A DNA stretch of 64,000 bases from Pseudomonadota bacterium (GTDB lineage: Bacteria > Pseudomonadota > Gammaproteobacteria > UBA12402), in the NCBI GenBank assembly GCA_039190005.1, contig JBCCYM010000002.1:10285-74284 (forward strand), written 5' to 3'. Every line of letters begins with the position of its first letter. Positions within the stretch are counted from its first letter, which is position 1. Shown here piece after piece: positions 9,256 through 62,783 of this stretch. A program made the translations under genes and the position numbers. The notes under the pieces were generated by a model. That model searched no databases, was not told where the DNA came from, and saw only the letters and a program-made list of their open reading frames with translations.

Positions 9256-9331
9256 CGCCCTTTGACCCCTCGACCCTTCGACAGGCTCAGGGCAAGCAGG
9301 CTCAGGGACCACCCTTCGACAGGCTCAGGGA
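9256..9331. repeat. Dispersed GC-rich intergenic repeat, family A ('ccttcgacaggctcagggcaagcaggctcagggacc' orientation), one and a half units
   Basis: Sequence cgccctttgacccctcgacccttcgacaggctcagggcaagcaggctcagggaccacccttcgacaggctcagggacc. Near-identical copies occur at eight or more other loci in the window. Confidence 0.9.
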
Positions 9332-9360
9332 CCATTGTGGTTTTTAGGATTATTATTTAT

Positions 9361-10913: not shown

Positions 10914-11010
10914 AATGCTCAACAAGTTTAGTGTAATTTTTGCTTGAAGTCTATAGTTTTTATATGCCCAACGCGCGTCAAAATGTGAATTTATCCGCCA
11001 ATTTTGTCAC

Positions 11011-11145
11011 CACCCTTTGACCCTTCGACCCTTCGACAGGCTCAGGGCAAGCAGGTTCAGGGACCGCGGGTTAATGAACTTCAGATTCAGGGACCACTTT
11101 TTGGATTTCCTATTGCCTTCTGACTCTCCCGCAAGCGGGAGAGAT
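11011..11145. repeat. Family A repeat copy (same orientation as 9256-9331) plus a short palindrome tctcccgcaagcgggaga
   Basis: Sequence caccctttgacccttcgacccttcgacaggctcagggcaagcaggttcagggaccgcggg...cagggaccac, then a 7-bp-stem hairpin at 11124-11141. Confidence 0.85.
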
Positions 11146-11323
11146 TTCTTACTTTAAACCTTAAAACTGGACTTTTAATCATATCCTAGATTCACTGCTG
11201 GTTTGCAACAGTGAGGTAAGTTCTTTATACTCTATAAAAACTGATTCAAGCGAAAGTGTGTTAAGCCATTACTTAGCGTTTATTTTGTTTGGAAGGCATT
11301 ATATTATATTATTTTTATTTGCT

Positions 11324-15630: not shown

Positions 15631-15657
15631 AGTTAATTTAAATCTAAAAACCGCAGT

Positions 15658-15746
15658 GGTCCCTGAGCCTGCTTGCCCTGAGCCTGTCGAAGGGTCGAAG
15701 GGTCGAAGGGTCGAAGGCTCGAGGGGGTAAAAGTGTCGAAGGGTTA
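15658..15746. repeat. Family A repeat copy in the opposite orientation (ggtccctgagcctgcttgccctgagcctgtcgaagg), with three and a half gtcgaagg sub-repeats
   Basis: An exact reverse complement of the 9256/11011 copies. It lies in the gap before birA. Confidence 0.9.
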
Positions 15747-16776: not shown

Positions 16777-16904
16777 GAAATTGCTGGATGGTTTGCGTGT
16801 TGATAGAACCAGGTGATTGACAGTTATACGGCACAATGCCTAAACAAAGCGCTTTAATCCAATGTCGCAATGTTTGTATTTTTTTTGTCCATCTAAAATT
16901 TCCT

Positions 16905-17064
16905 TGTTATTCCCGCGCTTCTTCGAGACCCTTCGACCCTTCGACAGGCTCAGGGCAAGCAGGCTCAGGGACCGCAAGTTCAGGGATCGTTTTTTGAAAT
17001 CCAAAGAACAGGTTACAGACATCAACATTTTTATGCGGGATCCCCGCTTTCGCGGGAATAACAA
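16905..17064. mobile_element. A MITE-like element about 160 bp long. It has 14-bp terminal inverted repeats TTGTTATTCCCGCG that enclose a family A repeat unit and a ggatcc-centred hairpin.
   Basis: The left end is ttgttattcccgcgcttc and the right end is ccgctttcgcgggaataacaa, in perfect inverted orientation. Internally it reads cccttcgacccttcgacaggctcagggcaagcaggctcagggacc. ORFs 16862..17158 and 16907..17116 (PEPACPEPVEGS) are translation artefacts of the repeat. Confidence 0.7.
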
Positions 17065-17678: not shown

Positions 17679-17811
17679 GGTTTTTTCCTCATCTGTTGGT
17701 GTTAAGTACAATGGGTATATTTGTTAATTGTATATAACGAATGTATGGCTAGCAATAGTTTCATCAAGTTTTCTAAAATCTGATTTTTTTCGATGTTTCA
17801 AATCGAAAGAG

Positions 17812-17918
17812 CTCCCTGAGCCTGCGGTCCCTGAGCTTGTGGTCCCTGAGCTTGTCGAAGGGTCGAAGGGTGGTCCCTGAGCCTGCTTGCCCTGAGCCTG
17901 TCGAAGGGTCGAAGGGTC
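17812..17918. repeat. Family A repeat, two tandem units in the ggtccctgag orientation
   Basis: Sequence ctccctgagcctgcggtccctgagcttgtggtccctgagcttgtcgaagggtcgaagggtggtccctgagcctgcttgccctgagcctgtcgaagggtcgaagggtcg. It lies in the divergent sodB/hldE intergenic region. Confidence 0.9.
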
Positions 17919-18016
17919 GTGCTAATGGTGAGTTTGCCAGATTTCAACAGTCCCATGTTGGTATTCTATGATAAAATTGTTACAATTAGCGTTTAGTATA
18001 ACAAGAGAGATCCCTG

Positions 18017-28261: not shown

Positions 28262-28290
28262 CAGTGTGTTCTCTCAATATTTTTGTCCGC

Positions 28291-28315
28291 TATTCTCGCG
28301 CGGGCGAGAATGACA
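28291..28315. terminator. Solo dRS3-like hairpin tATTCTCGCgcggGCGAGAATgaca, between the rlmB stop and the hemX start
   Basis: A perfect 8-bp inverted repeat with a 4-nt loop. It has the same ATTCYCGC-N4-GCGRGAAT motif that forms the TIRs of the MITE-like elements. It is possibly a terminator for rnr-rlmB, though no clear U-tract follows. Confidence 0.4.
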
Positions 28316-31596: not shown

Positions 31597-31805
31597 CATA
31601 CCCAACGCAGATCAAGATGCGAAGTAATATATAACTAAAAAAAGGTGTGAATTAGAAAATTTAGCTGTTCAGTTTGTTACCACCTTGGGACGTTCTGACC
31701 GAGAAAAACGCGAGTAATAGTTGTGCTATTGGGAGCGTTTTTCGACCGAGGAACGTTCCAAGGTGGTGACAAAATGGGCAGCTAAATTCGTATCTTGATC
31801 TGCGT
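31597..31805. repeat. A nested imperfect palindromic element about 210 bp long, with two inverted-repeat arm pairs around a central loop
   Basis: Outer arms: tacccaacgcagatcaagatgcgaa (31599-31623) and ttcgtatcttgatctgcgttgggta (31777-31801), 24/25 complementary. Inner arms: aatttagctgttcagtttgttaccaccttgggacgttctgaccgagaaaaacgc (31648-31700) and gcgtttttcgaccgaggaacgttccaaggtggtgacaaaatgggcagctaaatt (31725-31778), about 85% complementary. The loop is gagtaatagttgtgctattgggag. The left arm carries an extra roughly 30-nt insertion. Confidence 0.75.
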
Positions 31806-31830
31806 TGGGTATAATAAGAGTATCGATTAA

Positions 31831-32826
31831 ATGAGTAAAAAATTTCCACGTACAAAAGTAACACATGATTTGTTTTTTCAGCAATCTTTGATGCAGAAAT
31901 CTATCGCATTGGATTTTTTCAAAGCACATTTGCCGCGGAGTGTGCAGTCAAAAATTGATTGGAACAGTTTAACATTAGAGCCAGGACGATTTGTGGCTAA
32001 AGAATATAGAGTGCAATACAGTGATGTGTTGTATTCGGTAAGGCTTTCTGAGGAGTTAGCTTACTTATATATTCTAGCAGAACACAAAAGTTATGGTGAT
32101 CGTTTTCTGCCATTGCAATTATTAAGGTACATGTGTGCCATTTGGCAACGTTATATTGAACAGAAGAGAAAATTAGGGAAAGGACAGGGTTGTTTGCCGA
32201 TGATCTATCCACTTACATATTATCATGGTCGCCAATCGCCTTATCCGTATTCAACCGATATTCGCGATTGTTTTGCCGATAAGGCATTGGCGAAAGCGAT
32301 ATTTGATAAACCATTTCCCTTGATAGATATGACACAATACAGTGATGAAAACTTATTACAGCATGGTAGGGCATCCACATTTGAACTGTTGCAAAAGCAT
32401 ATTTTTGCCAAAGATTTATTAGAAGATATCCAGGAATTGTTGAAAAACAAGCATTTCATAGCGCTTATGCGTGAAACATCTGGTGATTATAGTTTTCAGG
32501 TGTTACAATATATGATAGAGGCAAGTGAGTCTACTCACGCTGATAAATTTTTAAAGCAATTAACCCAACAACTTCCAGAAATAGGTGATCAAATTATGAC
32601 AGTTGGACAACAACTCAGACAGCAAGGCATTGAGCAAGGTATTGAGCGAGGTATTGAGCGAGGCATTGAACAAGGTATTGAACAGGGCATTGAGCGAGGT
32701 ATTAAGCAGGGTAGGACGGTGGAAGCTATGACAATCGCAAGAACGCTCTTAAATCGGGGGATGTCACTTGAAGAAGTGGCGGAGATTACCCATTTATCTT
32801 ATGAAAAGCTTCAGAGAATTAAGTGA
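31831..32826 (+). CDS. rpn: Rpn-family (YhgA-like, PD-(D/E)XK) recombination-promoting nuclease / putative transposase
   Basis: The N-terminal block THDLFFQQSLMQKSIALDFFKAHLP...YSDVLYSV...ILAEHKSYGD matches the conserved YhgA/RpnA motifs (HDxxFK, DxLY, EHQS). The C-terminus has seven or more GIEQG/GIERG hexapeptide repeats and ends LEEVAEITHLSYEKLQRIK. Confidence 0.85.
   Translation: MSKKFPRTKVTHDLFFQQSLMQKSIALDFFKAHLPRSVQSKIDWNSLTLEPGRFVAKEYRVQYSDVLYSVRLSEELAYLYILAEHKSYGDRFLPLQLLRYMCAIWQRYIEQKRKLGKGQGCLPMIYPLTYYHGRQSPYPYSTDIRDCFADKALAKAIFDKPFPLIDMTQYSDENLLQHGRASTFELLQKHIFAKDLLEDIQELLKNKHFIALMRETSGDYSFQVLQYMIEASESTHADKFLKQLTQQLPEIGDQIMTVGQQLRQQGIEQGIERGIERGIEQGIEQGIERGIKQGRTVEAMTIARTLLNRGMSLEEVAEITHLSYEKLQRIK
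32596..32826 (+). CDS. Candidate intragenic RpnS-like small protein (77 aa), in frame within the 3' end of rpn
   Basis: The internal ATG at 32596 is preceded by AGGTGATCAAATT, a Shine-Dalgarno sequence at correct spacing. The identical SD plus ATG context is preserved in the downstream duplicate at 32948. This call is inferred from sequence only. Confidence 0.45.
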   Translation: MTVGQQLRQQGIEQGIERGIERGIEQGIEQGIERGIKQGRTVEAMTIARTLLNRGMSLEEVAEITHLSYEKLQRIK

Positions 32827-32887
32827 CATAGAATTACATGAGTAATTCTATTTTGCTTCAACATGCGAGTTTGCCTATGAGTGTACT

Positions 32888-33139
32888 GACGCTGATAGAT
32901 TTTTAGAGCAATTAACCCAACAATTTCCAGAAATAGGTGATCAAATTATGACAGTTGGACAACAACTCAGACAGCAAGGTATTGAGCAAGGCATTAAGCA
33001 GGGTATTAAACAAGGTAGGACAGCGGAAGCTATGACAATCGCAAGAACACTTTTAAATCGAGAGATGTCACTTGAAGAAGTGGCGGAGATTACGCGTTTA
33101 CCTTATGAAAAGCTTCAGCGAATTAAGTCAGAAAATTGA
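32888..33139 (+). repeat. A roughly 250-bp segmental duplication of the rpn 3' end (32535-32826). It has three instead of seven GIxQG repeats.
   Basis: About 90% nucleotide identity to 32535-32826. The difference is the number of 18-bp ggyattgagcragg repeats. Confidence 0.9.
32948..33139 (+). CDS. Free-standing RpnS-like ORF (63 aa), a duplicate of the Rpn C-terminal domain with its own SD and ATG
   Basis: MTVGQQLRQQGIEQGIKQGIKQGRTAEAMTIARTLLNREMSLEEVAEITRLPYEKLQRIKSEN. The N-terminal nuclease part of rpn has no in-frame ATG upstream of this copy. The frame opens only at 32846 after a TAA. Confidence 0.55.
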   Translation: MTVGQQLRQQGIEQGIKQGIKQGRTAEAMTIARTLLNREMSLEEVAEITRLPYEKLQRIKSEN

Positions 33140-36036: not shown

Positions 36037-37086
36037 ATGACTAAAATAAGTAATACAAATATTCATGAGATAAAACCATTATTATCCCCTGAAATGGTAC
36101 TCCATGATTTACCGATGAATGATAAGATTCGTATACATGTCCAATCGGGACGACAACAATTAGAAGCAATTATTAAAGGTGAAGATAAACGACTAATTGC
36201 CATTGTTGGTCCCTGTTCGGTTCATGAAAAAGACGCGGCACTGGATTACGCGCGTAAACTGAAAGTAGTGGCGGAAGCCATGAAAGATAAACTGTGCATT
36301 GTCATGCGAGTCTATTTTGAGAAACCGCGCACCACGGTGGGCTGGAAAGGACTGATTAATGACCCTTATCTTGATAACAGTTTTAATATTAACGCGGGAC
36401 TGAAATTAGCAAGAGAGCTATTGCTGGAAATTAATACACTTGGTCTTTTTGCCGCGACAGAGTTTGTCGATACATTCACCCCACAATATATTGCCGACCT
36501 CATTTCTTGGGCCGCTATTGGTGCAAGAACGGTTGAGAGCCAACCGCACCGTATGTTAGCTTCGGGTTTATCTATGCCTGTGGGGTTTAAAAACAGTACC
36601 ACTGGTGATGTGGAAGTCGCTGCTAATGCTGTGGCAGCTGCGACCAATCCGCATCGTTTTCTTGGTGTGACACAAAACGGGCTGGCAGCAATTGTCAATA
36701 CCAAAGGGAATGATAATTGTCATATTGTTTTACGTGGTGGTAAAAGTGGCACCAATTACAGTGCCGAACATGTCAACATGGCCGCGGCCTTACTGGCTAA
36801 ACATCATCTGCCACAAGGTATTATGATTGATTGCAGCCACGGTAATTCTAACAAAGATTTTAGACGACAGGCGGATGTCGTTGATGCTATTTGTAAACAG
36901 TTACTGCAAGGGTCAAGTCATATTATGGGCTTAATGATTGAGAGCAACTTATTAGAAGGTCGTCAGGATTTTGAACCCGGTGCAAAACTCGTTTACGGCA
37001 AAAGTATTACCGATGCTTGCATCGGCTGGGAACAAACAGAAATATTGTTAAACACGTTAGCAGAAAAAGTTAACATAGGGGGTTGA
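36037..37086 (+). CDS. aroG: 3-deoxy-7-phosphoheptulonate (DAHP) synthase, class I-alpha
   Basis: IVGPCSVHE, KPRT and GARTVESQ motifs. Length 349 aa. Confidence 0.95.
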   Translation: MTKISNTNIHEIKPLLSPEMVLHDLPMNDKIRIHVQSGRQQLEAIIKGEDKRLIAIVGPCSVHEKDAALDYARKLKVVAEAMKDKLCIVMRVYFEKPRTTVGWKGLINDPYLDNSFNINAGLKLARELLLEINTLGLFAATEFVDTFTPQYIADLISWAAIGARTVESQPHRMLASGLSMPVGFKNSTTGDVEVAANAVAAATNPHRFLGVTQNGLAAIVNTKGNDNCHIVLRGGKSGTNYSAEHVNMAAALLAKHHLPQGIMIDCSHGNSNKDFRRQADVVDAICKQLLQGSSHIMGLMIESNLLEGRQDFEPGAKLVYGKSITDACIGWEQTEILLNTLAEKVNIGG

Positions 37087-37973
37087 TGATGAATAATGAA
37101 CTAGAAAATTTAAGAAAACAAATTAATGACATCGATAGTCAGGTGCTCGATTTAATTACTCAACGTGCTGAAGTAGCAAAGTTAGTGCTAGCCAGTAAAT
37201 TGAAAATGGCTGGCGGTGAAGCACCACAGATTTTTTTCCCGCAGCGTGAACGGGAAGTGATTGCACGGCTGATTGACAAAAATACCAGTGCTTTGCCAGG
37301 ACAGTCAATCGCTAGTATTTTTCAGGCAATTATGAACGCCTGTCGCAATCTGCAAATTACTATGTTGGCTGACACGAAAGACGCGCCAAAAGCTAAGGCG
37401 TTAAAAATAAGTGTTCAAGGTATTGAGCACAGTTATTCGCATCAGGCAGCCGTTGAGTTTTGTAATCGTCGAAAATTGCCAAATTATAGGATTGATTATG
37501 CCGTTTCCAGCAACAATGTTCTCGATCATGTTGTTTCAGGAAAAACTCAGTATGGTATTGTCGCGCTTAATAACGCGCAGGGCGGTTTGGTTGATGAGAC
37601 CATCAAGGCCTTAACGCGGCATAACTATAATATTGTCGATAGCGTTGTCTTGCCGGTTGAACATAGTTTGTTAGTGCTGCCTGGGACAAAAAAAGAACAA
37701 ATTACCCATGTCTATTCACATTCGCAGGCATTGAGACAGTGCGCTGCTTATCTTAAAAAGGAATATCCCAACTGCAAACAAATTGAATGGGCGGATACGG
37801 CACTTTCTGCCAGTGATTTAGCTGCTGGGAAAATTGACAAACACAGCGCGGTTATCGCGCATGCGAATTGTGCTAAAACCAATGGTTTGAATATTCTGGA
37901 TCAAAATATACAAGATCTGAAAAATAATGAAACCTTGTTTTTAGTTGTTAACGCGGGATCGGCTAATGGCTAA
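37083..37973 (+). CDS. pheA: bifunctional chorismate mutase / prephenate dehydratase lacking the C-terminal ACT regulatory domain
   Basis: The N-terminus carries the AroQ chorismate mutase motif LRKQINDIDSQVLDLITQRAEVAKLV. The prephenate dehydratase core follows (GIEHSYSHQAA...TRF-like). Length is 296 aa, against about 386 aa for E. coli PheA. Confidence 0.85.
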   Translation: MMMNNELENLRKQINDIDSQVLDLITQRAEVAKLVLASKLKMAGGEAPQIFFPQREREVIARLIDKNTSALPGQSIASIFQAIMNACRNLQITMLADTKDAPKAKALKISVQGIEHSYSHQAAVEFCNRRKLPNYRIDYAVSSNNVLDHVVSGKTQYGIVALNNAQGGLVDETIKALTRHNYNIVDSVVLPVEHSLLVLPGTKKEQITHVYSHSQALRQCAAYLKKEYPNCKQIEWADTALSASDLAAGKIDKHSAVIAHANCAKTNGLNILDQNIQDLKNNETLFLVVNAGSANG

Positions 37974-38712
37974 ACATCAAATTGGCATTTTAGGTTATGG
38001 TCGCTTCGGGCGTATTATGATGCGCCTGTTAGCGTCAGATCATGAGGTTTTTTTCTATGATGTGAATGACAATTTGCATCAAGAACAATCTTTCAAACCG
38101 CTACAGGATCTGTTGAAACTGCCTGTGTTGATTTTGGCGGTGCCAATCAATCAAATGGAAACAGTGCTTAAGCAAATTTCTGCGCATTTAAGTACACAAA
38201 CAGTGATTGATGTTTGCTCGGTTAAAATCTATCCAACTCAATTAATGCTCAACTATCTGCCGGAAAAAGTCAATGTGATTGCGACACATCCTATGTTTGG
38301 TCCAGACTCATACGGTAGCCAAGGTCAAAAAAATATGATGATGTATCCAGCCAGAGTATCAAAGGCAATCTTTCAACAATGGCATGATTATTTTTTAGCA
38401 AAAGATCTCAATGTTTGTATCATGTCGCCGGAACAGCATGATCGCGAGAGTGCTTTTTCTCAAAGCCTGACCCATTTTTTAGGTCGGGTGTTGAATGAGA
38501 TAAACTTGCAAGACACTGATATTTCAACCGAAGGTTATCGAAGTTTGTTAAAAATTGTCGAGCAAACCTGTAATGATAGCTGGGAATTGTTTCAAGACAT
38601 CTTGCAATATAATCCATATGGCGAAACAATGATTGAACAACTTAACGCAGCAACGGACAACGTAGTCCATAAATTAAAATCAAGTAATCAGAGAGGTGAT
38701 GATGGCAAGTAA
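37966..38712 (+). CDS. tyrA: prephenate/arogenate dehydrogenase
   Basis: Rossmann motif GILGYGRFG and the conserved HPMFGP motif. The ATG at 37966 overlaps the pheA stop (ATGGCTAA). Confidence 0.8.
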   Translation: MAKHQIGILGYGRFGRIMMRLLASDHEVFFYDVNDNLHQEQSFKPLQDLLKLPVLILAVPINQMETVLKQISAHLSTQTVIDVCSVKIYPTQLMLNYLPEKVNVIATHPMFGPDSYGSQGQKNMMMYPARVSKAIFQQWHDYFLAKDLNVCIMSPEQHDRESAFSQSLTHFLGRVLNEINLQDTDISTEGYRSLLKIVEQTCNDSWELFQDILQYNPYGETMIEQLNAATDNVVHKLKSSNQRGDDGK

Positions 38713-39796
38713 TAGTTTTGGTAATTTATTTCGTATTACCACCTGGGGTGAATCACATGGTAAAGGCATTGGCGTGGTCATTGATGGTTGTCCTGCCGGA
38801 TTGCCATTATCAGAAGAAGAGATCAATATTGAATTGCGTCGACGTGCGCCGGCCGGTAATAATCCTTATACCACACCACGCAAAGAAGCGGATTTTGGTG
38901 AAATCTATTCCGGTGTGTTTGAAGGCAAAACAACCGGCGCGCCGATTGCAATTATTATTATGAATAACAATGCTGATTCCAGTAAATACGAACCCATTAA
39001 AAATTTACTGCGTCCGGGACATGCCAATTATACCTATTTAGAAAAATATGGCTGTTTTGATTACCGTGGTGGCGGTCGCGCATCGGCACGGGAAACCGCT
39101 TGTCGTGTCGCCGCGGGCGCGGTTGCCAAAAAATTGCTTGCCCATTACAACGTTGAAATTGCCGCGTTTATTCGATCAATTGGCACGGTAAACGCGGAAG
39201 AAGTGTTTTCGGATATTAAAGCATTGAAACAGCAACGCGATAATAGCCCGGTTTATTGTCCTTCGCCTGTTGCCGCTGGGAAAATGATGCAGGCGATCAG
39301 TGCCGCCAAAGAAGCGGGTGATTCATTAGGGGGTGTTGTTGAATTCGCGGCACATGGTTTACCTATTGGACTTGGTGATCCGGTTTATGAAAAAATCGAA
39401 GCCAATTTAGCCAAAGCGATGATGAGTTTACCGGCAACAAAAGGGTTTACCATTGGTGAAGGGTTTAGTGCCAGCACCATGTTAGGCTCAGCACATAACG
39501 ATACTTTCCATGCTGAAGATGAGCAAATAAAATTAACGACGAATAAAGCCGGCGGCACCTTAGGTGGTATTACTACCGGTGAGGTATTGCGTGGTCATGT
39601 CGCGTTTAAACCGACCTCTAGTATCAAAAAACAACAACAGTCGGTTAATCTTCAAGCCGAAAATAAAACATTTAAACTGCCTGAAGGCTCACGCCATGAT
39701 CCTTGTGTGGCTATTCGCGCGGTGCCGGTGGTTGAAGCGATGGTGGCATTAACACTTGTTGACGCCTTGTTGCTTAATCGTTGTGTCAAACTGTAG
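38696..39796 (+). CDS. aroC: chorismate synthase
   Basis: SFGNLFRITTWGESHG, GGRASARETA, and a C-terminus conserved with AroC. Confidence 0.95.
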   Translation: MMMASNSFGNLFRITTWGESHGKGIGVVIDGCPAGLPLSEEEINIELRRRAPAGNNPYTTPRKEADFGEIYSGVFEGKTTGAPIAIIIMNNNADSSKYEPIKNLLRPGHANYTYLEKYGCFDYRGGGRASARETACRVAAGAVAKKLLAHYNVEIAAFIRSIGTVNAEEVFSDIKALKQQRDNSPVYCPSPVAAGKMMQAISAAKEAGDSLGGVVEFAAHGLPIGLGDPVYEKIEANLAKAMMSLPATKGFTIGEGFSASTMLGSAHNDTFHAEDEQIKLTTNKAGGTLGGITTGEVLRGHVAFKPTSSIKKQQQSVNLQAENKTFKLPEGSRHDPCVAIRAVPVVEAMVALTLVDALLLNRCVKL

Positions 39797-39804
39797 TGGC
39801 TGTG

Positions 39805-40917
39805 ATGAAAACTTTAGCATTAAAACATCGACAAGGTATTTGCAATATTCATATTGGTAATCATATTATTGAAAATGAGTTACTGCTGCAAGCATGTCAT
39901 CCGCTTGCCAATCATTTTGTCATTATTTCAGACAGTAATGTCGCGCCTTTATATGCTGAACCTATTCTCAATCAGTTAGAGAAAGCAAACAAAAAATGTG
40001 AGTTATTTACCATCACTGCCGGCGAGAAAAGCAAAACCCGCGAAGTCAAACAAACACTAGAAGATAACATGCTAGCTGCGGCTTGTGGACGAGATACCGC
40101 TATTATTGCCATTGGCGGTGGTGTAGTGACCGATTTATCCGGTTTTATTGCCGCGACTTATTGTCGTGGCATTAAAAGTATTTATGTGCCGACAACGCTG
40201 CTTGCCATGGTCGATGCCGCGATTGGTGGCAAAACAGCAGTGAATACCCCGTTGGGTAAAAATATGATTGGCTGTTTTTATCAACCACATCATGTGTTTT
40301 GTGATGTCGGCACGTTAGCGACATTGCCTCATGATGAGCTTGCCAATGGATTGGTGGAAACCATTAAACACGCGCTTATTTTAGATAAAGATTTTTTCTT
40401 TGCGTTGGATAAGCTCTACACGCAAAAACAATTATCAGCTGTCCAGCTAGAACAATTGATTCATCGCAGTTGTGAGATTAAATGCGGTGTGGTTGAAAAA
40501 GATGAATGTGAAATCAGTGGAATGCGTCAGCTGGTTAATTTTGGTCATACTGTTGCCCATGGGATTGAACGCTTAATGGATTATAATGTCAGCCATGGCC
40601 AAGCTGTGTTGATTGGATTATGGGTTGAAAGTTGTTTGTCCAATTTATTGGGTTATTTAAGTGATCAGGAATTTGCTTGTATCACAAACAGTTTAGAAAA
40701 AATTAAATTTTCTAAACCGATAGATTTATCGATTCATCAACTTGATCAACTCAAAGAGAACATGATATTAGACAAAAAGTCAGTCGGTAAACAAGCACGT
40801 TTTGTCTTGCTTGATAACATCGGTAAAGCGCGTTATCACGACAAGCAGTTCAGTTTTTCAGTCCCTGAAAAAATAGTAGATAAAGCATTCATATTATATT
40901 TGGAGGTGAACCAATGA
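39805..40917 (+). CDS. aroB: 3-dehydroquinate synthase
   Basis: GGGVVTDLSGFIAATYCRGI, GGKTAVNTPLGKNMIGCFYQP and HGIERL motifs. The ATG is at 39805. The track ORF begins at TTG 39781, overlapping the aroC stop. Confidence 0.95.
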   Translation: MKTLALKHRQGICNIHIGNHIIENELLLQACHPLANHFVIISDSNVAPLYAEPILNQLEKANKKCELFTITAGEKSKTREVKQTLEDNMLAAACGRDTAIIAIGGGVVTDLSGFIAATYCRGIKSIYVPTTLLAMVDAAIGGKTAVNTPLGKNMIGCFYQPHHVFCDVGTLATLPHDELANGLVETIKHALILDKDFFFALDKLYTQKQLSAVQLEQLIHRSCEIKCGVVEKDECEISGMRQLVNFGHTVAHGIERLMDYNVSHGQAVLIGLWVESCLSNLLGYLSDQEFACITNSLEKIKFSKPIDLSIHQLDQLKENMILDKKSVGKQARFVLLDNIGKARYHDKQFSFSVPEKIVDKAFILYLEVNQ

Positions 40918-42341
40918 AATCCATGTTAACAGTGACCATTCCGGTATCAACAATAGAGCGTGCGCGGCAACATATTGCCGAAGTTGCCCATCAAGCGGAT
41001 TTGCTTGAGATAAGATTAGATTATTTAAAAAATCCTGATATTGAGGCATTAAAAAAACTAACAGCTGATATAACTCTGCCTTATATCTTAACCTTGCGCA
41101 GTAAACAACACGGTGGATTATTTTCTGGCGATGAAACGACACGCTTACATTTAATTAAAACCTTATTAGCAGCCAAGCCCGATTATTTGGATCTTGAAAT
41201 TGATGTAGAAGATCGTTATATCGACGAAATTCATGCCCAATATCCGGAAGTAAAGTTAATACGTTCATGTCATGATTTTAAACACACACCTGAAGATTTA
41301 TCTGCCATTTTAGAAAGAATGCGTCATCCGGCGATGAGTGTTTACAAAATAATTACCTATGCCAATTCCTCGCTTGATTCATTGCGTATGATGAATTTTG
41401 TCAAGCAACAATCCTCGCAACATCACATTGTTGGCCACTGTATGGGCGAAGAGGGGGTATTTAGTCGTATTGCCGGCGCGGTGATGGGTAATCTATGGAC
41501 TTATGTGGCTGTTGATACTGAGTCCGCAGTGGTAAGCCATCAATTGACCTTGTCTGATTATCACAATATTTATTTTTTACACAAAAAAAATAGCGATACA
41601 AAATTATTCGCCTTGCTTGGTGATCCAGTTATTTATAGTCTGGGCCATATTTTTCACAATAAAAACTTTGATCAACATGACATCAACGCGCTTTATTTAA
41701 AAATAAAAGTGTCGTCTGAACAATTAACGTCGCTTTTTGCCTTAATCAAAACACTGCCTTTTTTTGGTTTTAGCGTGACAACGCCGTTGAAACAAGAGGT
41801 GTTACCTTATGTCCGTAATCTTTCCGGTTTGCAGGCGGTGAATACACTTTCGGTTGAAAACGGTGAGATTTCGGCCATCAATACTGATGGTTTGGGGACG
41901 CTGGACGCGATTGAAGAAATTGTTAAAGTAAAAGATAAGAAAGTATTATTACTCGGTGCCGGTGGTGCCGCGAAAGCGATTGCGCAAGCCGCTCATGATC
42001 GTGGCGCCGATATGACCATTGCCAATCGAACATTTGCCAACGCTGAGAAAATAGCGCGACTGTTCCCCGCTAAAATTATTGATTTTTCAGTGGAGGATAA
42101 CACGCTTTATGACATTGTCATCAACGCTTTGACTTTAAATGTCTTTGAGCAAGCGACATTTATTGACTGGCTAAGCCATATTTTACAGCGGCAACCTTTG
42201 GTGATGGATGTTAATTATAACCGTGCCGATAATCCACTGTTAAGCCTATGCGAAAAATATAACTGCCAGGTCATTCGTGGTGAAAAAATGTTTGTTAACC
42301 AAGCATTGGCACAATATCGCTATTGGTTTAATAAGCAATAA
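40914..42341 (+). CDS. Bifunctional type I 3-dehydroquinate dehydratase / shikimate 5-dehydrogenase (AroD-AroE fusion)
   Basis: The N-terminal half (LLEIRLDYL...LTLRSKQHGG) is a type I DHQase. The C-terminal half (VLLLGAGGAAKAIAQAAHDRGADMTIANRT) is an NADP-binding shikimate dehydrogenase. Length is 475 aa. Confidence 0.85.
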   Translation: MKSMLTVTIPVSTIERARQHIAEVAHQADLLEIRLDYLKNPDIEALKKLTADITLPYILTLRSKQHGGLFSGDETTRLHLIKTLLAAKPDYLDLEIDVEDRYIDEIHAQYPEVKLIRSCHDFKHTPEDLSAILERMRHPAMSVYKIITYANSSLDSLRMMNFVKQQSSQHHIVGHCMGEEGVFSRIAGAVMGNLWTYVAVDTESAVVSHQLTLSDYHNIYFLHKKNSDTKLFALLGDPVIYSLGHIFHNKNFDQHDINALYLKIKVSSEQLTSLFALIKTLPFFGFSVTTPLKQEVLPYVRNLSGLQAVNTLSVENGEISAINTDGLGTLDAIEEIVKVKDKKVLLLGAGGAAKAIAQAAHDRGADMTIANRTFANAEKIARLFPAKIIDFSVEDNTLYDIVINALTLNVFEQATFIDWLSHILQRQPLVMDVNYNRADNPLLSLCEKYNCQVIRGEKMFVNQALAQYRYWFNKQ

Positions 42342-42387
42342 AACAACAGATTATTACCTATTTTTTTAAATTATCGGAGATATTATT

Positions 42388-43674
42388 ATGTCTAATTATC
42401 ACATAAAAGCTAGTCAGTTATCGGGTAGCATTGCTATACCGGCGTCAAAATCACAAAGCATTCGTGCTATTTTATTCGCGACAATGGCAAAAGGTGTCAG
42501 TACGGTTGAAAATTATTTAAACTCACCCGACATCAAAGCGATGGTATCCGCTTGTCGTCAACTTGGTGCTGAAATAGAACAACAGGATAATAAATTATTA
42601 ATAACAGGTGTTGATGGTAACCCGAACACGCCTGATGATGTCATTGATTCGGGTAACTCAGGACAAGTGTTGCGATTTGTCGCTTGCCTTGCCGGTTTGC
42701 AAGATCACTATGTTGTCTTAACCGGTGATGCTTCTATTCGTCATAACCGACCGGTTCAACCTTTGTTGGAAGCCTTGCCTAAATTAGGGGTGCAGTGTGA
42801 ATCCTTGCGCGGTGATGGTTACGCGCCACTGATTATCAAAGGGCCATTTCAAGGCAGTGAAACAACGTTAAGTGGTGAAGATTCACAACCGGTATCTGGC
42901 TTATTAATGGCGCTTGCTTTTAAACAAGGTGTTTCCACCATTACCGTTCGCAATCCAGGTGAAAAACCATGGGTAAATTTAACCTTGAAGTGGTTTGATC
43001 GCTTTGGGATTTCCTATAAAAATGATAATTTCGCCAATTATCAAGTCACCGGCAAAGCGCGAATTTCGGCATTCAATTATCGTGTGCCCGGTGATTTGAG
43101 TTCTTTAGCCTATCCATTGCTTGCTGCGTTGGTCACGCATTCTGAAATTACCATTACCGATGTCGATATGAATGAACCGCAGGGTGATAAAGCGATTGTT
43201 GAGGTCTTCAGAAAAATGGGCGCGAAGATTAGTATGAATGAACAGGAAAGAACCTTAACTGTCCATAAAATAGACTTTTTGCAAGGCATTGAAGTCGACG
43301 TCAATAATTTTATTGATTGCGTGACCATTATTGCTGTAGCGGGTTGTTTTGCTCAAGGCACAACAAAAATTACTGGCGCCGAGATCGCACGGACAAAAGA
43401 ATCCGATCGCATTTCGGCAATTACCCGTGAATTGAAAAAAATGGGCGCGAATATAGAGGAGTTGCCTGATGGATTAATTGTGCAGCAATCACAGTTACAC
43501 GCGGCAAATGTTGATAGCTATCATGACCATCGCATCGTCATGTCGCTAGCGGTTGCCGCGCTGACTATTAAAGAAGAAACGATTATCCATGATGTTCGCT
43601 GTGTGCAAAAAAGCTTCCCTAATTTCGATGGTATTTTTCAGTCATTAGGAGGGAATATAGTCAGTGAAGCTTAA
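42388..43674 (+). CDS. aroA: 3-phosphoshikimate 1-carboxyvinyltransferase (EPSP synthase)
   Basis: Starts IPASKSQSIRAILFA and carries the LGNSGQVLRF-like motif (SGNSGQVLRFVA). Length 428 aa. Confidence 0.95.
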   Translation: MSNYHIKASQLSGSIAIPASKSQSIRAILFATMAKGVSTVENYLNSPDIKAMVSACRQLGAEIEQQDNKLLITGVDGNPNTPDDVIDSGNSGQVLRFVACLAGLQDHYVVLTGDASIRHNRPVQPLLEALPKLGVQCESLRGDGYAPLIIKGPFQGSETTLSGEDSQPVSGLLMALAFKQGVSTITVRNPGEKPWVNLTLKWFDRFGISYKNDNFANYQVTGKARISAFNYRVPGDLSSLAYPLLAALVTHSEITITDVDMNEPQGDKAIVEVFRKMGAKISMNEQERTLTVHKIDFLQGIEVDVNNFIDCVTIIAVAGCFAQGTTKITGAEIARTKESDRISAITRELKKMGANIEELPDGLIVQQSQLHAANVDSYHDHRIVMSLAVAALTIKEETIIHDVRCVQKSFPNFDGIFQSLGGNIVSEA

Positions 43675-44206
43675 ACATATTGCCTTAATTGGTCTGAAAA
43701 GCTGTGGTAAAACGACTGTAGGGCAAGCGCTTGCCAAGCAGCTTGACTATCGCTATAACGATACCGATCAGATCATTGAACATTTATATGTTGATCAAGC
43801 GGGAGAGCGTCTTGATTTTCGATCCATTTATCAAAAATTAGGCAATGATCGATTTCGCCAACTGGAAACGCAAGCAATCGAGCAAGCTGTTGCTAATCGC
43901 GCGCCATCAGTGATTGCCACGGGTGGTGGCAGTTTATTAAATCAGCACAATGTTGAAAAGCTTGTTCAACATAGTGTGATGATTTATCTTAAAGCCAGTG
44001 TTGATACCTTAAAAGAAAGATGGCTAGCACGTCCACCATCGTTTATTAATCCTAAAAATCTATCTGAAGAACTGAGCAACTATTACGCTAAGCGGGCAAA
44101 AACCTATACAGGTATCGCCACTATTACAATAGTGGTTGATGAAAAAACGCCTGATGAGATTGTTACTGATATTATTATGGCACTAAATACTTTAGCTAAG
44201 ATGTGA
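43664..44206 (+). CDS. aroK: shikimate kinase
   Basis: Walker A motif IALIGLKSCGKTTVG. Length 180 aa. It overlaps the aroA stop. Confidence 0.9.
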   Translation: MKLKHIALIGLKSCGKTTVGQALAKQLDYRYNDTDQIIEHLYVDQAGERLDFRSIYQKLGNDRFRQLETQAIEQAVANRAPSVIATGGGSLLNQHNVEKLVQHSVMIYLKASVDTLKERWLARPPSFINPKNLSEELSNYYAKRAKTYTGIATITIVVDEKTPDEIVTDIIMALNTLAKM

Positions 44207-44221
44207 GTGATTTACCACAAT

Positions 44222-44309
44222 TGTCATTCTCGCGCAGGCGGGAATCCAGGGAACAAGCTACAAGCATACACATTGTTCTCCTGGATTCCCGCTTGCGCGA
44301 GAATGACGA
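44222..44309. mobile_element. A NIME/MITE-like element with roughly 30-bp terminal inverted repeats, each itself a dRS3-like hairpin. It is followed by degenerate gaatgac repeats to about 44350.
   Basis: The left end is tgtcattctcgcgcaggcgggaatccaggg. The right end is cctggattcccgcttgcgcgagaatgacga, in inverted orientation. Each end contains ATTCYCGC-N4-GCGRGAAT. It lies immediately downstream of aroK and is a likely operon terminator. Confidence 0.7.
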
Positions 44310-44422
44310 GAGAAATACGGTAATGACGGAGAAAATATGAGAATGACAGTGAGAAATAAGTATGATGAGGAAACGCTATAAGTATAAAACCCATGTAATT
44401 TTTTAAAATAGGTACATTTATT

Positions 44423-49059: not shown

Positions 49060-49160
49060 TATCACTTCAACGTGCGAATTTGCGTTGGGTATAGCAAGAT
49101 GGCGATAAATTTGTTACAGTATTCGAAGTTTATCCTGATCTTGAATGAGGAAGCCAGCGC

Positions 49161-51122: not shown

Positions 51123-51267
51123 GATAAGATGAGAGTGTACTCTTCGACAGGTTCAGGGCAGCAGGCTCAGGGCCCTCAGTCTTAACGTATAAGATGGCTG
51201 AGCTTGTCGAAGCCAGAGCACGTACTTGGAAAACTTGTGATGTTCTTTGACCGGGCTCAGGGACCTT
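51123..51267. repeat. Mosaic intergenic repeat: a family A variant plus a family B unit (cgtataagatggctgagcttgtcgaagcc...)
   Basis: Sequence ctcttcgacaggttcagggcagcaggctcagggccctcagtcttaacgtataagatggctgagcttgtcgaagccagagcacgtacttggaaaacttgtgatg...gggctcagggacc. The family B unit recurs twice at 62535-62720. Confidence 0.85.
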
Positions 51268-54513: not shown

Positions 54514-54593
54514 AGTTCAAGCAGTGTAACTGCTTGAACTAACTGGATTCCCGCCCTTCGACAAGCTCAGGAACCGCCTACGCGGGAATGACG
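54514..54593. repeat. Hairpin (agttcaagcagTGTAActgcttgaact) abutting a NIME-like unit. dRS3-like inverted repeats (ctggattcccgc ... gcgggaatgacgg) flank a family A fragment.
   Basis: An 11-bp perfect stem at 54514-54540. Then ctggattcccgcccttcgacaagctcaggaaccgcctacgcgggaatgacgg. Confidence 0.75.
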
Positions 54594-54674
54594 GAGTCGT
54601 CAGAATTCAACAATCTCTTTAATAATATACTAACACAATTACCGCGGTTTTGTTAGTGCTGTTGTCCTGATTTT

Positions 54675-55712
54675 TTATAATGGTTCATCGCTAATAGATA
54701 AACCATGATTGGTGGCAGCATAGACGATATGATGATAAACATAGACGCCATAAACCTGATTGCCGCCCAAACCATTTTCAGTGGTATAATTGCTGAAATG
54801 TTCGCCGCCATCTGTGGATATGGATAAACCATGATTGGTGCCGACATAGAGCTCATTGCCATTTACATAAATACTCCATGCTTGATCACTACCCAAGCCG
54901 TTTTCCATGGTATAATTTCGCAGATGCTGACCATCTTTAGTAAAAACAGACACACCACCGCTGCCATCATAATAGGCTGTGGTAGTGTAAATATAATGCG
55001 CTGTCACAAATAGATCACTGATGTCATTGCTTTTAAAACCAGTGGTGAAATTTTTGAAATTATAACCACCATCAGTTGATATCGATAAGCCACCACCCAT
55101 GCCATCGTAGTCTGGCGCTGTCGCGGCATAAATTGTTTCACCTTCGGCGTAAACGCTGATCACATTATCGCTGCTTAAGCCATTGATGGTGGTGCGATTG
55201 CTAAAATGTTTGCCACCATCAGTTGAAATAGCTAAACCGCCGGGACCGTCATAATCCTGCGTGGCGACATAGATGTGTTGACCTTGCACATAGACATCAC
55301 TGGCATCATTGCTGCCAAAGCCATTTGCTGTGGTATAGTTGGTAAAATGTTCGCCGTTATCATCGGATATGGATAAGCCACCGGTGTTGCCCTGGCTTGG
55401 TACCGTTGCGGCGTAAATTTTGCCATCGGCCGCGTAAGCCGCGAACACAACATTGCTGGCTAAACCATTTTCGTCAACAGTTTTATTATCAAAAGATTCC
55501 CCCTGATTAGTAGAAATTGATAACCCGCCATAAGTCGCCGCGTAAATATCACCGTTTGTGACATAGACATTTTTGACTAAATTACTGCCAAGCCCCTGTT
55601 TGGTGGTGATCGTAGTAAAAAGTCCGGATTTCGTCTGAGCCATGTCATTGGTAATCGAAAGGCTTGCTAAGCTGGTGAATAGTAGAATAAAGGAAAGAAT
55701 AGATTTTTTCAT
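54675..55712 (-). CDS. secreted BNR/Asp-box repeat beta-propeller protein
   Basis: Signal peptide MKKSILSFILLFTSLASLS. There are about seven roughly 46-aa repeats, each with GLSIS(T/D)DGG(K/E)HF, which matches the S-x-D-x-G-x-T-W/F Asp-box. Confidence 0.7.
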   Translation of the reverse strand: MKKSILSFILLFTSLASLSITNDMAQTKSGLFTTITTKQGLGSNLVKNVYVTNGDIYAATYGGLSISTNQGESFDNKTVDENGLASNVVFAAYAADGKIYAATVPSQGNTGGLSISDDNGEHFTNYTTANGFGSNDASDVYVQGQHIYVATQDYDGPGGLAISTDGGKHFSNRTTINGLSSDNVISVYAEGETIYAATAPDYDGMGGGLSISTDGGYNFKNFTTGFKSNDISDLFVTAHYIYTTTAYYDGSGGVSVFTKDGQHLRNYTMENGLGSDQAWSIYVNGNELYVGTNHGLSISTDGGEHFSNYTTENGLGGNQVYGVYVYHHIVYAATNHGLSISDEPL

Positions 55713-60659: not shown

Positions 60660-61169
60660 TTAAAGACATATTGCTGGATTAGTTACACAAGGGGCAGTCA
60701 CATTATCAATAAACACGTTAACATCATTGTATACTTTTCCTGTTTTGAACGTATTGTCAATGTTGCTTATTTTAAATGTAATACTGTTTTTTGTTAACAC
60801 GGGGTCGCTCAATGTGACGATATAAGCGGTTAAGTTTTGTTGGCCTGCTAGCGTAAGATCAGCATGAACAGCGGCGGCGTTCGGATTTTCTGAAAAAATC
60901 TCGCGCCAGTTTTTGATGAATCGATCGGTTTTAATTTTGGTAAACTTTCTGTTTGGACTATCAGAAAACGCGACAATGTTATTGTCTGGGCTAATGAGCT
61001 TCAAATAGGATTGCCCTTCTTTTTGTTGTACTATGGCATGATCAGCGTGCATGACAATCAGCCAGGGTGTTTTTGTTTGTTGAGATGCGTGATCGGTTGA
61101 CGCATTCGCGCAGGCGAACAGCGCGATGTTAAAGAGTAAAGCGATAGAAATTTGAAAAATTTTTCTCAT
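60660..61169 (-). CDS. hypothetical secreted protein, tandem paralog 1 (signal peptide, C-terminal Cys pair)
   Basis: MRKIFQISIALLFNIALFACANA, then about 150 aa. It is about 88% identical to the upstream paralog. Confidence 0.6.
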   Translation of the reverse strand: MRKIFQISIALLFNIALFACANASTDHASQQTKTPWLIVMHADHAIVQQKEGQSYLKLISPDNNIVAFSDSPNRKFTKIKTDRFIKNWREIFSENPNAAAVHADLTLAGQQNLTAYIVTLSDPVLTKNSITFKISNIDNTFKTGKVYNDVNVFIDNVTAPCVTNPAICL

Positions 61170-61223
61170 TGTGTTTTCCCCCATAGGACTATCGGCGCAA
61201 TTATAATAAAGTAAGTATAAATT

Positions 61224-61733
61224 TTATTCACATATTGCGGGAATGGTTTTGCAAGGGTCAGTAAAATTATCAATAAATAAGTTAATGTCATTATATACTT
61301 TTCCTTCTTTAAAGGTGTAATTGATATCATTGGCTTTAAATGTGAGACTATTTTTCGCTAACACCGGATCGCTCAATGTGACGATATAAGCGGTTAAGTT
61401 TTGTTGGCCTGCTAGCGTAAGGTCGGCATGGACAGCGGCGGCGTTAGGATTCTCTGAAAAAATTTTGTCCCAGTTTTTGATGAATCGATCGATTTTAATT
61501 TTAGTAAATTTTCTATTTGGGCTATCAGAAAACGCGACAATGTTATTGTCTGGGCTAATGAGCTTCAAATAGGATTGCCCTTCTTTTTGTTGTACTATAG
61601 CGTGATCAGCGTGCATGACAACCAGCCATGATGTTTTTGTTTGTTTGCTTGAATGATCTGTTGACGCGTTCGCGTATGCAAATAGCACGATACTAAATAA
61701 CAAAGCGATAGAAATTTGCAGTATTTTCCTCAT
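61224..61733 (-). CDS. hypothetical secreted protein, tandem paralog 2
   Basis: MRKILQISIALLFSIVLFAYANA...PCKTIPAICE. The start at 61733 is preferred over the extended track ORF. The nucleotide sequence is near-identical to 60660-61169. Confidence 0.6.
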   Translation of the reverse strand: MRKILQISIALLFSIVLFAYANASTDHSSKQTKTSWLVVMHADHAIVQQKEGQSYLKLISPDNNIVAFSDSPNRKFTKIKIDRFIKNWDKIFSENPNAAAVHADLTLAGQQNLTAYIVTLSDPVLAKNSLTFKANDINYTFKEGKVYNDINLFIDNFTDPCKTIPAICE

Positions 61734-61826
61734 TATATTTATCTCCATAGTGTTAGAATTAACAGACTGAGTTTCCCAGAAACTAGCACAAAATGTATAA
61801 GCCATCAAGTCAAAAATAGCATTTCA

Positions 61827-62420: not shown

Positions 62421-62490
62421 GTTTATCTCCTTTTATACTATTGATAACTATTATCTTTAAAACCACAGTTGATTGTCAAGTGATGGCGCA

Positions 62491-62783
62491 ACCCTTCGAC
62501 CCTTCAACAGGCTCAGGGCAAGCAAGCTCAACGTATAAGATGGCTGAGCTTGTCGAAGCCAAAGCACGTCCTCGGAAAACTTGTGATGCCCTTCGATGAA
62601 CTCAGGGACCACCCTTCGACAGGCTCAGGGCCCACCCTTTGAACGTCTTTAAGGCATAGATGGCTGAGCTTGTCGAAGCCCAAGCCTGCTTTCGAAAAAC
62701 TTGCTATGCCCTTCGATGAACTCAGGGACTACCCTTCGACAGGCTCAGGGCAAGCAGGCTCAGAGCAAGCAAGCTCAGGGATC
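62491..62783. repeat. Largest mosaic repeat array in the window, alternating family A and family B units (A-B-A'-B-A-A')
   Basis: Unit sequence: cccttcgacccttcaacaggctcagggcaagcaagctca | acgtataagatggctgagcttgtcgaagccaaagcacgtcctcggaaaacttgtgatgcccttcgatgaactcagggacc | acccttcgacaggctcagggccc | ...gcatagatggctgagcttgtcgaagcccaagcctgctttcgaaaaacttgctatgcccttcgatgaactcagggact | acccttcgacaggctcagggcaagcaggctcagagcaagcaagctcaggg. Confidence 0.9.

Follow-up and report, generated by a model that had tools for sequence, protein, structure and literature searches.

What are the GC-rich units of the array at positions 62484-62783 of the 64-kb window (the whole stretch of DNA that was analysed), and how did they come to lie among otherwise ordinary genes? 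The window is gammaproteobacterial-type housekeeping DNA of 41% GC, with serS, tRNA-Ser, zapD, birA, sodB, hldE, a shikimate cluster, tyrS, accA, tilS, efp, wrbA and nadA. A preliminary description distinguished two repeat units, A and B, and put the number of loci at nine or more; a blastn-short search of the window with the core and both units recovers precisely eight loci and no others (Table 1), and eight is also the number in the list given with that description. All eight lie outside open reading frames (ORFs) of at least 100 amino acids, as had been claimed, and because 89.9% of the window is coding, the chance of such a placement is ~1e-8. The loci fill 8 of the 24 gaps of at least 60 bp. 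The repeat elements have a GC content of 57.8%, compared to 41.3% for the window, in line with the earlier estimate of about 60% in AT-rich DNA. The A unit of roughly 45 bp is likewise real: the 44-mer by which it had been defined has five matches with at most three mismatches, and none in 100 shuffles. The 18-nt core CCTTCGACAGGCTCAGGG has 17 matches with at most four mismatches in the window, none of which is within an ORF, and three loci have exactly the same 47-nt centre of the A unit (100% identity), which two further loci match at 98%.

Table 1. Positions of the GC-rich repeat loci, the parts of the mosaic array and the CGTC-type REPs in the window.
Feature	Position	Strand	Setting and parts
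A-type locus 1	9258..9335	+	between serS and a Fic-domain gene; three 8-mers (two degenerate); cores 9275-9292 and 9313-9330, with a CAAG-CAGGCTCAGGG sub-repeat between
A-type locus 2	11012..11096	+	divergent region between tRNA-Ser(-) and zapD(+); core 11030-11047, then CAGGGA modules in decay
A-type locus 3	15656..15745	-	between a cinA-like gene and birA; core 15676-15693; at least four 8-mers, decaying outward
A-type locus 4	16917..16993	+	between convergent birA and sodB
A-type locus 5	17806..17922	-	divergent sodB/hldE region; two tandem A units with cores 17844-17861 and 17890-17907
Degenerate A core with B unit	51141..51265	+	between convergent tilS and a methyltransferase gene; degenerate A core 51141-51188, then B unit 51189-51265
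Single core	54553..54579	+	stem TCC/GGA; within the loop of a CGTC-type REP
Mosaic array	62484..62783	+	between the nadA stop (62798) and the wrbA start (62420)
Array part 1: A, 5' part	62484-62528		
Array part 2: B unit (B1)	62529-62612		
Array part 3: core	62611-62631		
Array part 4: degenerate core	62632-62655		
Array part 5: B unit (B2)	62646-62732		
Array part 6: A, 3' part	62731-62783		three CAGGCTCAGRG modules
CGTC-type REP	44220-44310		head-to-head dimer with 29-nt spacer
CGTC-type REP	17033-17062		
CGTC-type REP	28279-28314		
CGTC-type REP	54542-54597		
CGTC-type REP, half-copy	16903-16916		

Units A and B are both built from one 19-nt stem-loop module, NNNT followed by the loop TCGACARGCTC and then ANNN. 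The A unit is a single core of which both halves are tandemly amplified, with periods of 8 bp and 15 bp; on the TTCGAC strand it reads (ACCCTTCG)n, then ACAGGCTCAGGG, then (CAAG/ACCG-CAGGCTCAGGG)n. The internal tandem sub-repeats that had been noticed are real, with (ACCCTTCG)n forming the 8-bp series and (CAGGCTCAGGGnnnn)n the 15-bp series, and among these copies the outermost are the most decayed. Family A thus consists of single modules with the stem CCC/GGG, extended by partial tandem duplications of 8 bp and 15 bp. In the B unit, of which the window has three copies, two cores are inverted with respect to each other and separated by a spacer of ~27 nt, AGATGGCTGAGCTTGTCGAAGCC ... GCCCTTCGATGAACTCAGGGAC; one arm has the stem GGC/GCC and the other CCC/GGG.

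The array itself proved to be a genuine A/B mosaic, as the preliminary description had it. It begins 15 bp past the nadA stop codon and holds a duplication with a period of ~120 bp, whose copies have 76% identity ungapped and 89% identity over a 94-nt segment of B plus core. Spurious ORFs, which had also been pointed out, do cross it (e.g. ...ACPEPVEGSKG...), and a wrbA promoter-like site (62479-62450, minus strand) adjoins its end. Elsewhere in the window, the 22-mer ATYTGCGTTKGGTATARYAAGA is common to 17985-18006, 31798-31819 and 49078-49099, just upstream of hldE, a YhgA-like gene and accA, and looks like a promoter, with an extended -10 element, that the three have in common; 10950-11014 and 31762-31826 are connected by a related inverted match of 65 nt. 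Two adjacent paralogous ORFs without Pfam match, 60660-61184 and 61224-61808, have 82% DNA identity over 300 nt, and one Logan contig of the same organism breaks at this pair.

If the module is a stem-loop, the positions on either side of the loop should change together. An unbiased sample of arms was obtained with the pattern TTCGACARGCTCA-NNN-CGAACGG, which leaves the stem positions free. In 138 of the 155 distinct arms, the triplets on either side of T-TCGACARGCTC-A are perfectly complementary, while shuffles of the sample average 31 such arms and never exceed 50. The complementary pairs are of at least nine kinds: CCC/GGG (47 arms), GGC/GCC (26), TGC/GCA (20), TGG/CCA (20), TCC/GGA (19), CAC/GTG (3), and CGC/GCG, GAC/GTC and TGA/TCA (1 arm each). 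The covariation score for 111 distinct sequences is 0.505, compared to 0.122 ± 0.016 for shuffles, of which 0 in 500 reach 0.505, and scores do not exceed 0.146 when the partner positions are slid. In the same 111 sequences, 123 cells are changed on both sides where 45 are expected. Covariation therefore supports a 4-bp stem, made of three free complementary pairs and a fixed T-A pair, that closes an 11-nt loop, which is itself invariant save for one R position.

The arms are also combined in a regular way. Among 19 hairpin doublets, pairing within the stem of each arm is 95-100% Watson-Crick, but these positions can pair with those of the opposite arm in only 5-11%, so that a doublet almost always joins two unlike unit types. 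Pairing of the outer stem, CCGTTCG/CGAACGG, holds in 79-84%. Every doublet has a CCC/GGG arm, combined with one of type GGC, TGC, TGG or TCC, and the B units of the window, which join GGC/GCC with CCC/GGG, follow this design.

The repeat is not confined to the window. The core CCTTCGACARGCTCAGGG is present in at least 120 IMG/VR contigs, with 34-72% GC among the matches listed, and the hairpin form CCGTTCG-NNN-TGAGCYTGTCGAA-NNN ... CCCTTCGACARGCTCAGGG-CGAACGG in 49 plasmids of alpha-, beta- and gamma-proteobacteria, whose hosts include Moraxella, Sphingobium, Sphingomonas, Novosphingobium, Sinorhizobium, Comamonas, Polaromonas, Variovorax, Sulfuricella, Methylobacter and Methylotuvimicrobium. 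On these plasmids the matches are always in unannotated DNA, at up to 15 places per replicon, and mosaic arrays with the same partial tandem duplications occur in other lineages as well. No copy of the motif was found in 704 kb of unrelated metagenome control contigs (from a BirA scan, relatives of at most 41% identity); 5,426 E. coli genomes and 50,697 genomes of isolated phages were likewise free of it. The core is spread widely but patchily and is not lineage-specific; the window has the local form of a motif that distantly related bacteria have in common. In one IMG/VR contig of 42% GC (L225, 3014-3455), a hairpin doublet of the studied family lies between two tRNA genes.

A lineage-specific 33-mer matched only two contigs in the genome-contig scan. 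L122 is from a different Pseudomonadota metagenome-assembled genome (MAG; JBCCZV01) and has the same 33-mer and the same mosaic of A and B. L123 (JAEZAM010000111.1, from a MAG labelled Bacteroidetes) ends in an A-type unit at 1-60, with 33 nt identical to the window, and either the sub-family crosses phyla or the contig is mis-binned; its CzcA-type efflux genes are not diagnostic. The hairpin CTGACTCTCCCGCAAGCGGGAGAGATTTCTTA, which is terminator-like with an 8-bp stem and a T-rich tail, is found at 11118-11150 of the window and at 1722-1755 of L122, ~20-170 nt downstream of an A unit in both organisms.

This distribution bears on two alternative explanations of the repeats. Since the window itself comes from a MAG and short-read contigs break at repeats, the array could be an artefact of metagenome assembly or binning, for example chimeric joins at low-complexity sequence. 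We find this barely conceivable, given that the same sequences and junctions occur in independent Logan contigs of SRR22824305, and that the repeats are also present in the L122 MAG, in finished plasmids of cultured bacteria and in >200 IMG/VR contigs. Alternatively, the repeats could be kept for chromosome organisation, as sites where a host protein such as gyrase, IHF or a nucleoid protein binds double-stranded DNA. Lineages of very different GC have the same, unvarying 11-nt block, and its locations are only intergenic, as one would expect of such sites, and there is precedent in the binding of BIMEs by gyrase and by IHF (references cited in PMC6006769). However, the invariant block is not palindromic, and complementary flanks that covary are a prediction of a folded single strand, not of a duplex site. 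Moreover, the motif is absent from most genomes sampled and therefore no universal host protein can depend on it. We thus consider a role as duplex binding sites quite improbable.

Classical REPs have stems of 6-13 bp and loops of 2-5 nt, and REPINs are lineage-specific and vertically inherited. The repeats studied here are similar to the E. coli REP/BIME system and to REPINs in that they are short extragenic stem-loop units of probably high copy number. As in the REP/BIME system, they occur as singles, as inverted doublets of two types and as mosaic clusters, the doublet being an imperfect long hairpin whose two unit types parallel the Y and Z REPs paired in E. coli BIMEs; a GYRG-like tetranucleotide 5' of the unit, in the window lineage only, may be a further likeness. 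They differ from E. coli REPs in the 4-bp stem and the invariant 11-nt loop, and from REPINs in that the core is near-identical across bacterial classes. The resemblance to REP/BIME or NIME systems noted in the preliminary description therefore stands with respect to the small stem-loops, their arrangement as singles, inverted doublets and mosaics, their extragenic location and the dRS3-like CGTC REPs found in the window, but A and B are not two unrelated units.

Most REPs fall into two superfamilies, GTAG-tagged and CGTC-tagged; both are found in several phyla and have complementary stem variants, and their units are arranged singly, in head-to-head dimers or in clusters (Di Nocera et al., PMC3733652). 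The GTAG superfamily comprises 24 families, some with 5-bp stems or 9-15 nt loops and some with the degenerate tags GYRG and GTGG, and goes with RAYT transposases, while the CGTC REPs, including the Neisseria dRS3 of NIME arrays, ‘apparently lack a dedicated transposase’ (PMC3733652). The 5' flanks in the window lineage are GTGG-T in six cases (and four more in L122), GCGG-T in four and GTAG-T at 62727-62730 on the minus strand, which fits the degenerate GYRG and GTGG tags of the GTAG superfamily (PMC3733652). A stem-loop with complementary stem variants that form sub-families is another feature in common with that superfamily. Unlike GTAG REPs, the widespread proteobacterial form carries a CCGTTCG flank, and neither GTAG nor CGTC is found nearby. 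The repeats resemble the CGTC superfamily (in which CGTC-1 is the Neisseria dRS3) in their spread across phyla with little sequence change, and both this superfamily and NIMEs in having no known dedicated transposase and in forming arrays with other repeat units. CGTC REPs differ in having an 8-9 bp stem that starts with AT, a loop of 4-5 nt and a CCA tail. Thus, the 4-bp stem, the invariant 11-nt loop and the lack of a CGTC tag set the present family apart from both superfamilies.

The dRS3 repeat, ATTCCC-N8-GGGAAT, brackets units in Neisseria NIMEs. A second repeat in the window, (C/T)GTC-ATTCYCGC-N4-GCGRGAAT-CCA, fits the published description of a CGTC REP of the dRS3 type point by point, and its motif is in at least 120 IMG/VR contigs; it shares few loci with the studied family elsewhere (3 of 120 and 1 of 216). 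An arrangement that may correspond to NIME bracketing is seen at two loci of the window. At 54542-54597, the minus strand reads CGTC-ATTCCCGC-(27 nt with the core)-GCGGGAAT-CCA, such that the core lies between dRS3-like halves and occupies the exact position of the 4-nt loop of the CGTC-type REP. At locus 4, the A unit is flanked on both sides by CGTC-REP-like halves, 16903-16916 and 17033-17062. The other six loci are without such halves. The head-to-head CGTC REP dimer directly follows one co-oriented block, 36037-44206, that encodes a near-complete shikimate and aromatic amino acid pathway (homologues of aroG, pheA, tyrA, aroC, aroB, aroD/E, aroA and aroK). An ORF at 54675-55712 consists of five ~140-bp internal repeats and has only a weak BNR/Asp-box signal.

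No annotated family was found to which the elements belong. At the Rfam 15 threshold, only tRNAs were identified in the window and in 15 motif-rich loci. The elements have the hairpin arms CUGAGCUUGcCGAAG ... UUCGgCAAGcUCAg in common with RF02901 (AaHKsRNA41, an Aggregatibacter small RNA), but this match covers the arms only, with 13.5 bits where the gathering score is 97, and does not make the window elements members of that family. An rRNA or tRNA origin or complementarity was rejected, as there was no match with at most 5 mismatches in the E. coli rrn operon, and the translated hairpin had almost no words in common with a protein database. The motif strings were not found in the text and supplements of two REP catalogues (one of them PMC3733652), and a literature search by DNA and peptide strings returned no relevant description of the motif. 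The window repeats are best read as a local branch of a broad superfamily for which no description was found.

We consider it probable, on balance, that the elements are non-autonomous stem-loop repeats of the REP/BIME type that have multiplied in intergenic DNA. Single modules with a CCC/GGG stem would give family A, and an inverted pair of GGC/GCC and CCC/GGG modules with a ~27-nt spacer would give family B, in the layout of a REPIN or BIME. Local slippage or unequal recombination would then produce the 8-bp, 15-bp and ~120-bp tandem copies, and with them the mosaic arrays. By analogy with the REP/RAYT mechanism, the module would fold in single-stranded DNA, or possibly in RNA, and its constant loop would be recognised by an enzyme acting in trans, for which a Y1/HUH-type transposase similar to the RAYTs is the most plausible candidate. 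This enzyme would copy the module into further intergenic sites, among them the loops of other hairpins.

Some observations hint that the repeats have spread. In addition to the nested core, we found hairpins between Mu-like phage tail genes in L052. In the searched collections the top match has 41% identity for BirA and 77% for SodB; with the next-best SodB at 75-77% identity, no close relative is available for comparison. The nearest available relative, L214 (75% SodB identity), keeps the order of hldE, the epimerase and the kinase, and the spacers around these genes are short and repeat-free; because they are not strictly orthologous to those of the window, the comparison is only weak evidence for spread. 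Logan contigs of the same organism break inside elements, at both ends in L205 and at one end in L001, as expected for a high-copy repeat, which points to a high copy number genome-wide.

Small size, high copy number and intergenic location are also properties of ordinary MITEs, which derive by deletion from a DDE-type insertion sequence and carry terminal inverted repeats as well as target-site duplications, and the B unit is an inverted repeat of ~80 bp. If the units were MITEs, we would expect their copies to share defined ends. Nine copies aligned with their flanks have no common termini, terminal inverted repeats or target duplications, and their ends decay gradually; in addition, the unit is far below typical MITE size and the window has no DDE transposase. 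The MITE explanation is thus already disfavoured, and we regard it as very unlikely.

With respect to the enzyme that would copy the repeats, the check for a RAYT or IS200-like gene that had been recommended returned none in the 64-kb window, and no other Y1/HUH gene is present there. The sole transposase-like gene of the window encodes a YhgA-like Transposase_31 protein (Rpn-type nuclease; 31831-32826). A run of 12-bp tandem repeats (32609-32723) lies in the 3' part of this gene, and a ~300-bp copy of its 3' region is found just downstream (32878-33128, 89-91% identity; the repeats span 32526-33128). Unlike RAYT-mobilised REPs, the repeats were not found together with a RAYT in the window, at the motif loci, on the plasmids or at the IMG/VR RAYT loci. 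A tblastn search of 1.17 Mb of motif-bearing loci with E. coli RayT was negative, the 26 plasmids with a RAYT homologue do not overlap with the 49 motif plasmids, and a RAYT profile scan of IMG/VR identified two loci only, both without the motif. One Methylomonas RAYT locus lent no support to an association with RAYTs.

The elements might instead be primarily RNA elements, in which stem-loops in untranslated regions stabilise mRNA 3' ends, attenuate transcription or yield small RNAs; in that case, selection on RNA function would account for their copy number and conservation. Indeed, RNA from the minus strand of the array, the would-be nadA 3' UTR, folds with -125.9 kcal/mol (z = -3.9 versus shuffles). 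At the fourth stem pair, 99 arms have G-C and 51 have A.C, which reads as G-C or G.T on the opposite (TGAGC) strand, and a wobble allowed on one strand only is typical of RNA. The weak partial likeness to RF02901 is to a family derived from RNA-seq, and many REPs are transcribed and act as RNA (PMC3733652). On the other hand, the three variable stem pairs are almost wholly Watson-Crick, with G.U very rare, and no Rfam family is matched at threshold. If the elements functioned in transcripts, we would further expect a preferred orientation, but they occur in both orientations relative to flanking genes (5 versus 4 in the window, and 20 versus 10 in other loci of at most 56% GC), with no bias with respect to transcription. 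Divergent promoter regions hold two of the eight loci. Nor are the elements terminator-like, as a scan for intrinsic terminators missed all of them save one weak 5-bp site, 17822-17810. We therefore judge a primary role as RNA unlikely, although less so than the other alternatives.

The repeats have practical consequences. They break short-read assemblies, seed spurious ORFs (‘PFDKLRANG’, ‘VRPELVEG’ and ‘PEPVEGS’ are recurrent peptides) and could confound the linking of viruses to hosts by shared small repeats. Some carriers are cultivable, among them Moraxella osloensis and Sphingobium, with 1-15 copies per plasmid, as well as Methylotuvimicrobium alcaliphilum and Comamonas.

What is new here is the derivation of A and B from one 19-nt module with a covarying stem and an invariant loop, and the wide, patchy superfamily, without a description found, whose members lie beside classical CGTC REPs in the window and in one case inside one. 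These findings bear on how REP-like repeats spread and on why some of them stay nearly unchanged across distant bacteria. The module offers an unusually clean way into this problem, as what a partner has to recognise can be read from its constant loop and covarying stem. Whether the 19-nt module stands beside GTAG and CGTC as a third REP-like superfamily, across bacterial classes and perhaps phyla, is a more tentative proposal, which we regard as possible but somewhat doubtful. If it is true, the invariant loop and covarying stem would imply a conserved partner, either a single-stranded DNA nuclease or transposase or an RNA-binding factor, that is carried by, or passes between, very different bacteria and their prophages.
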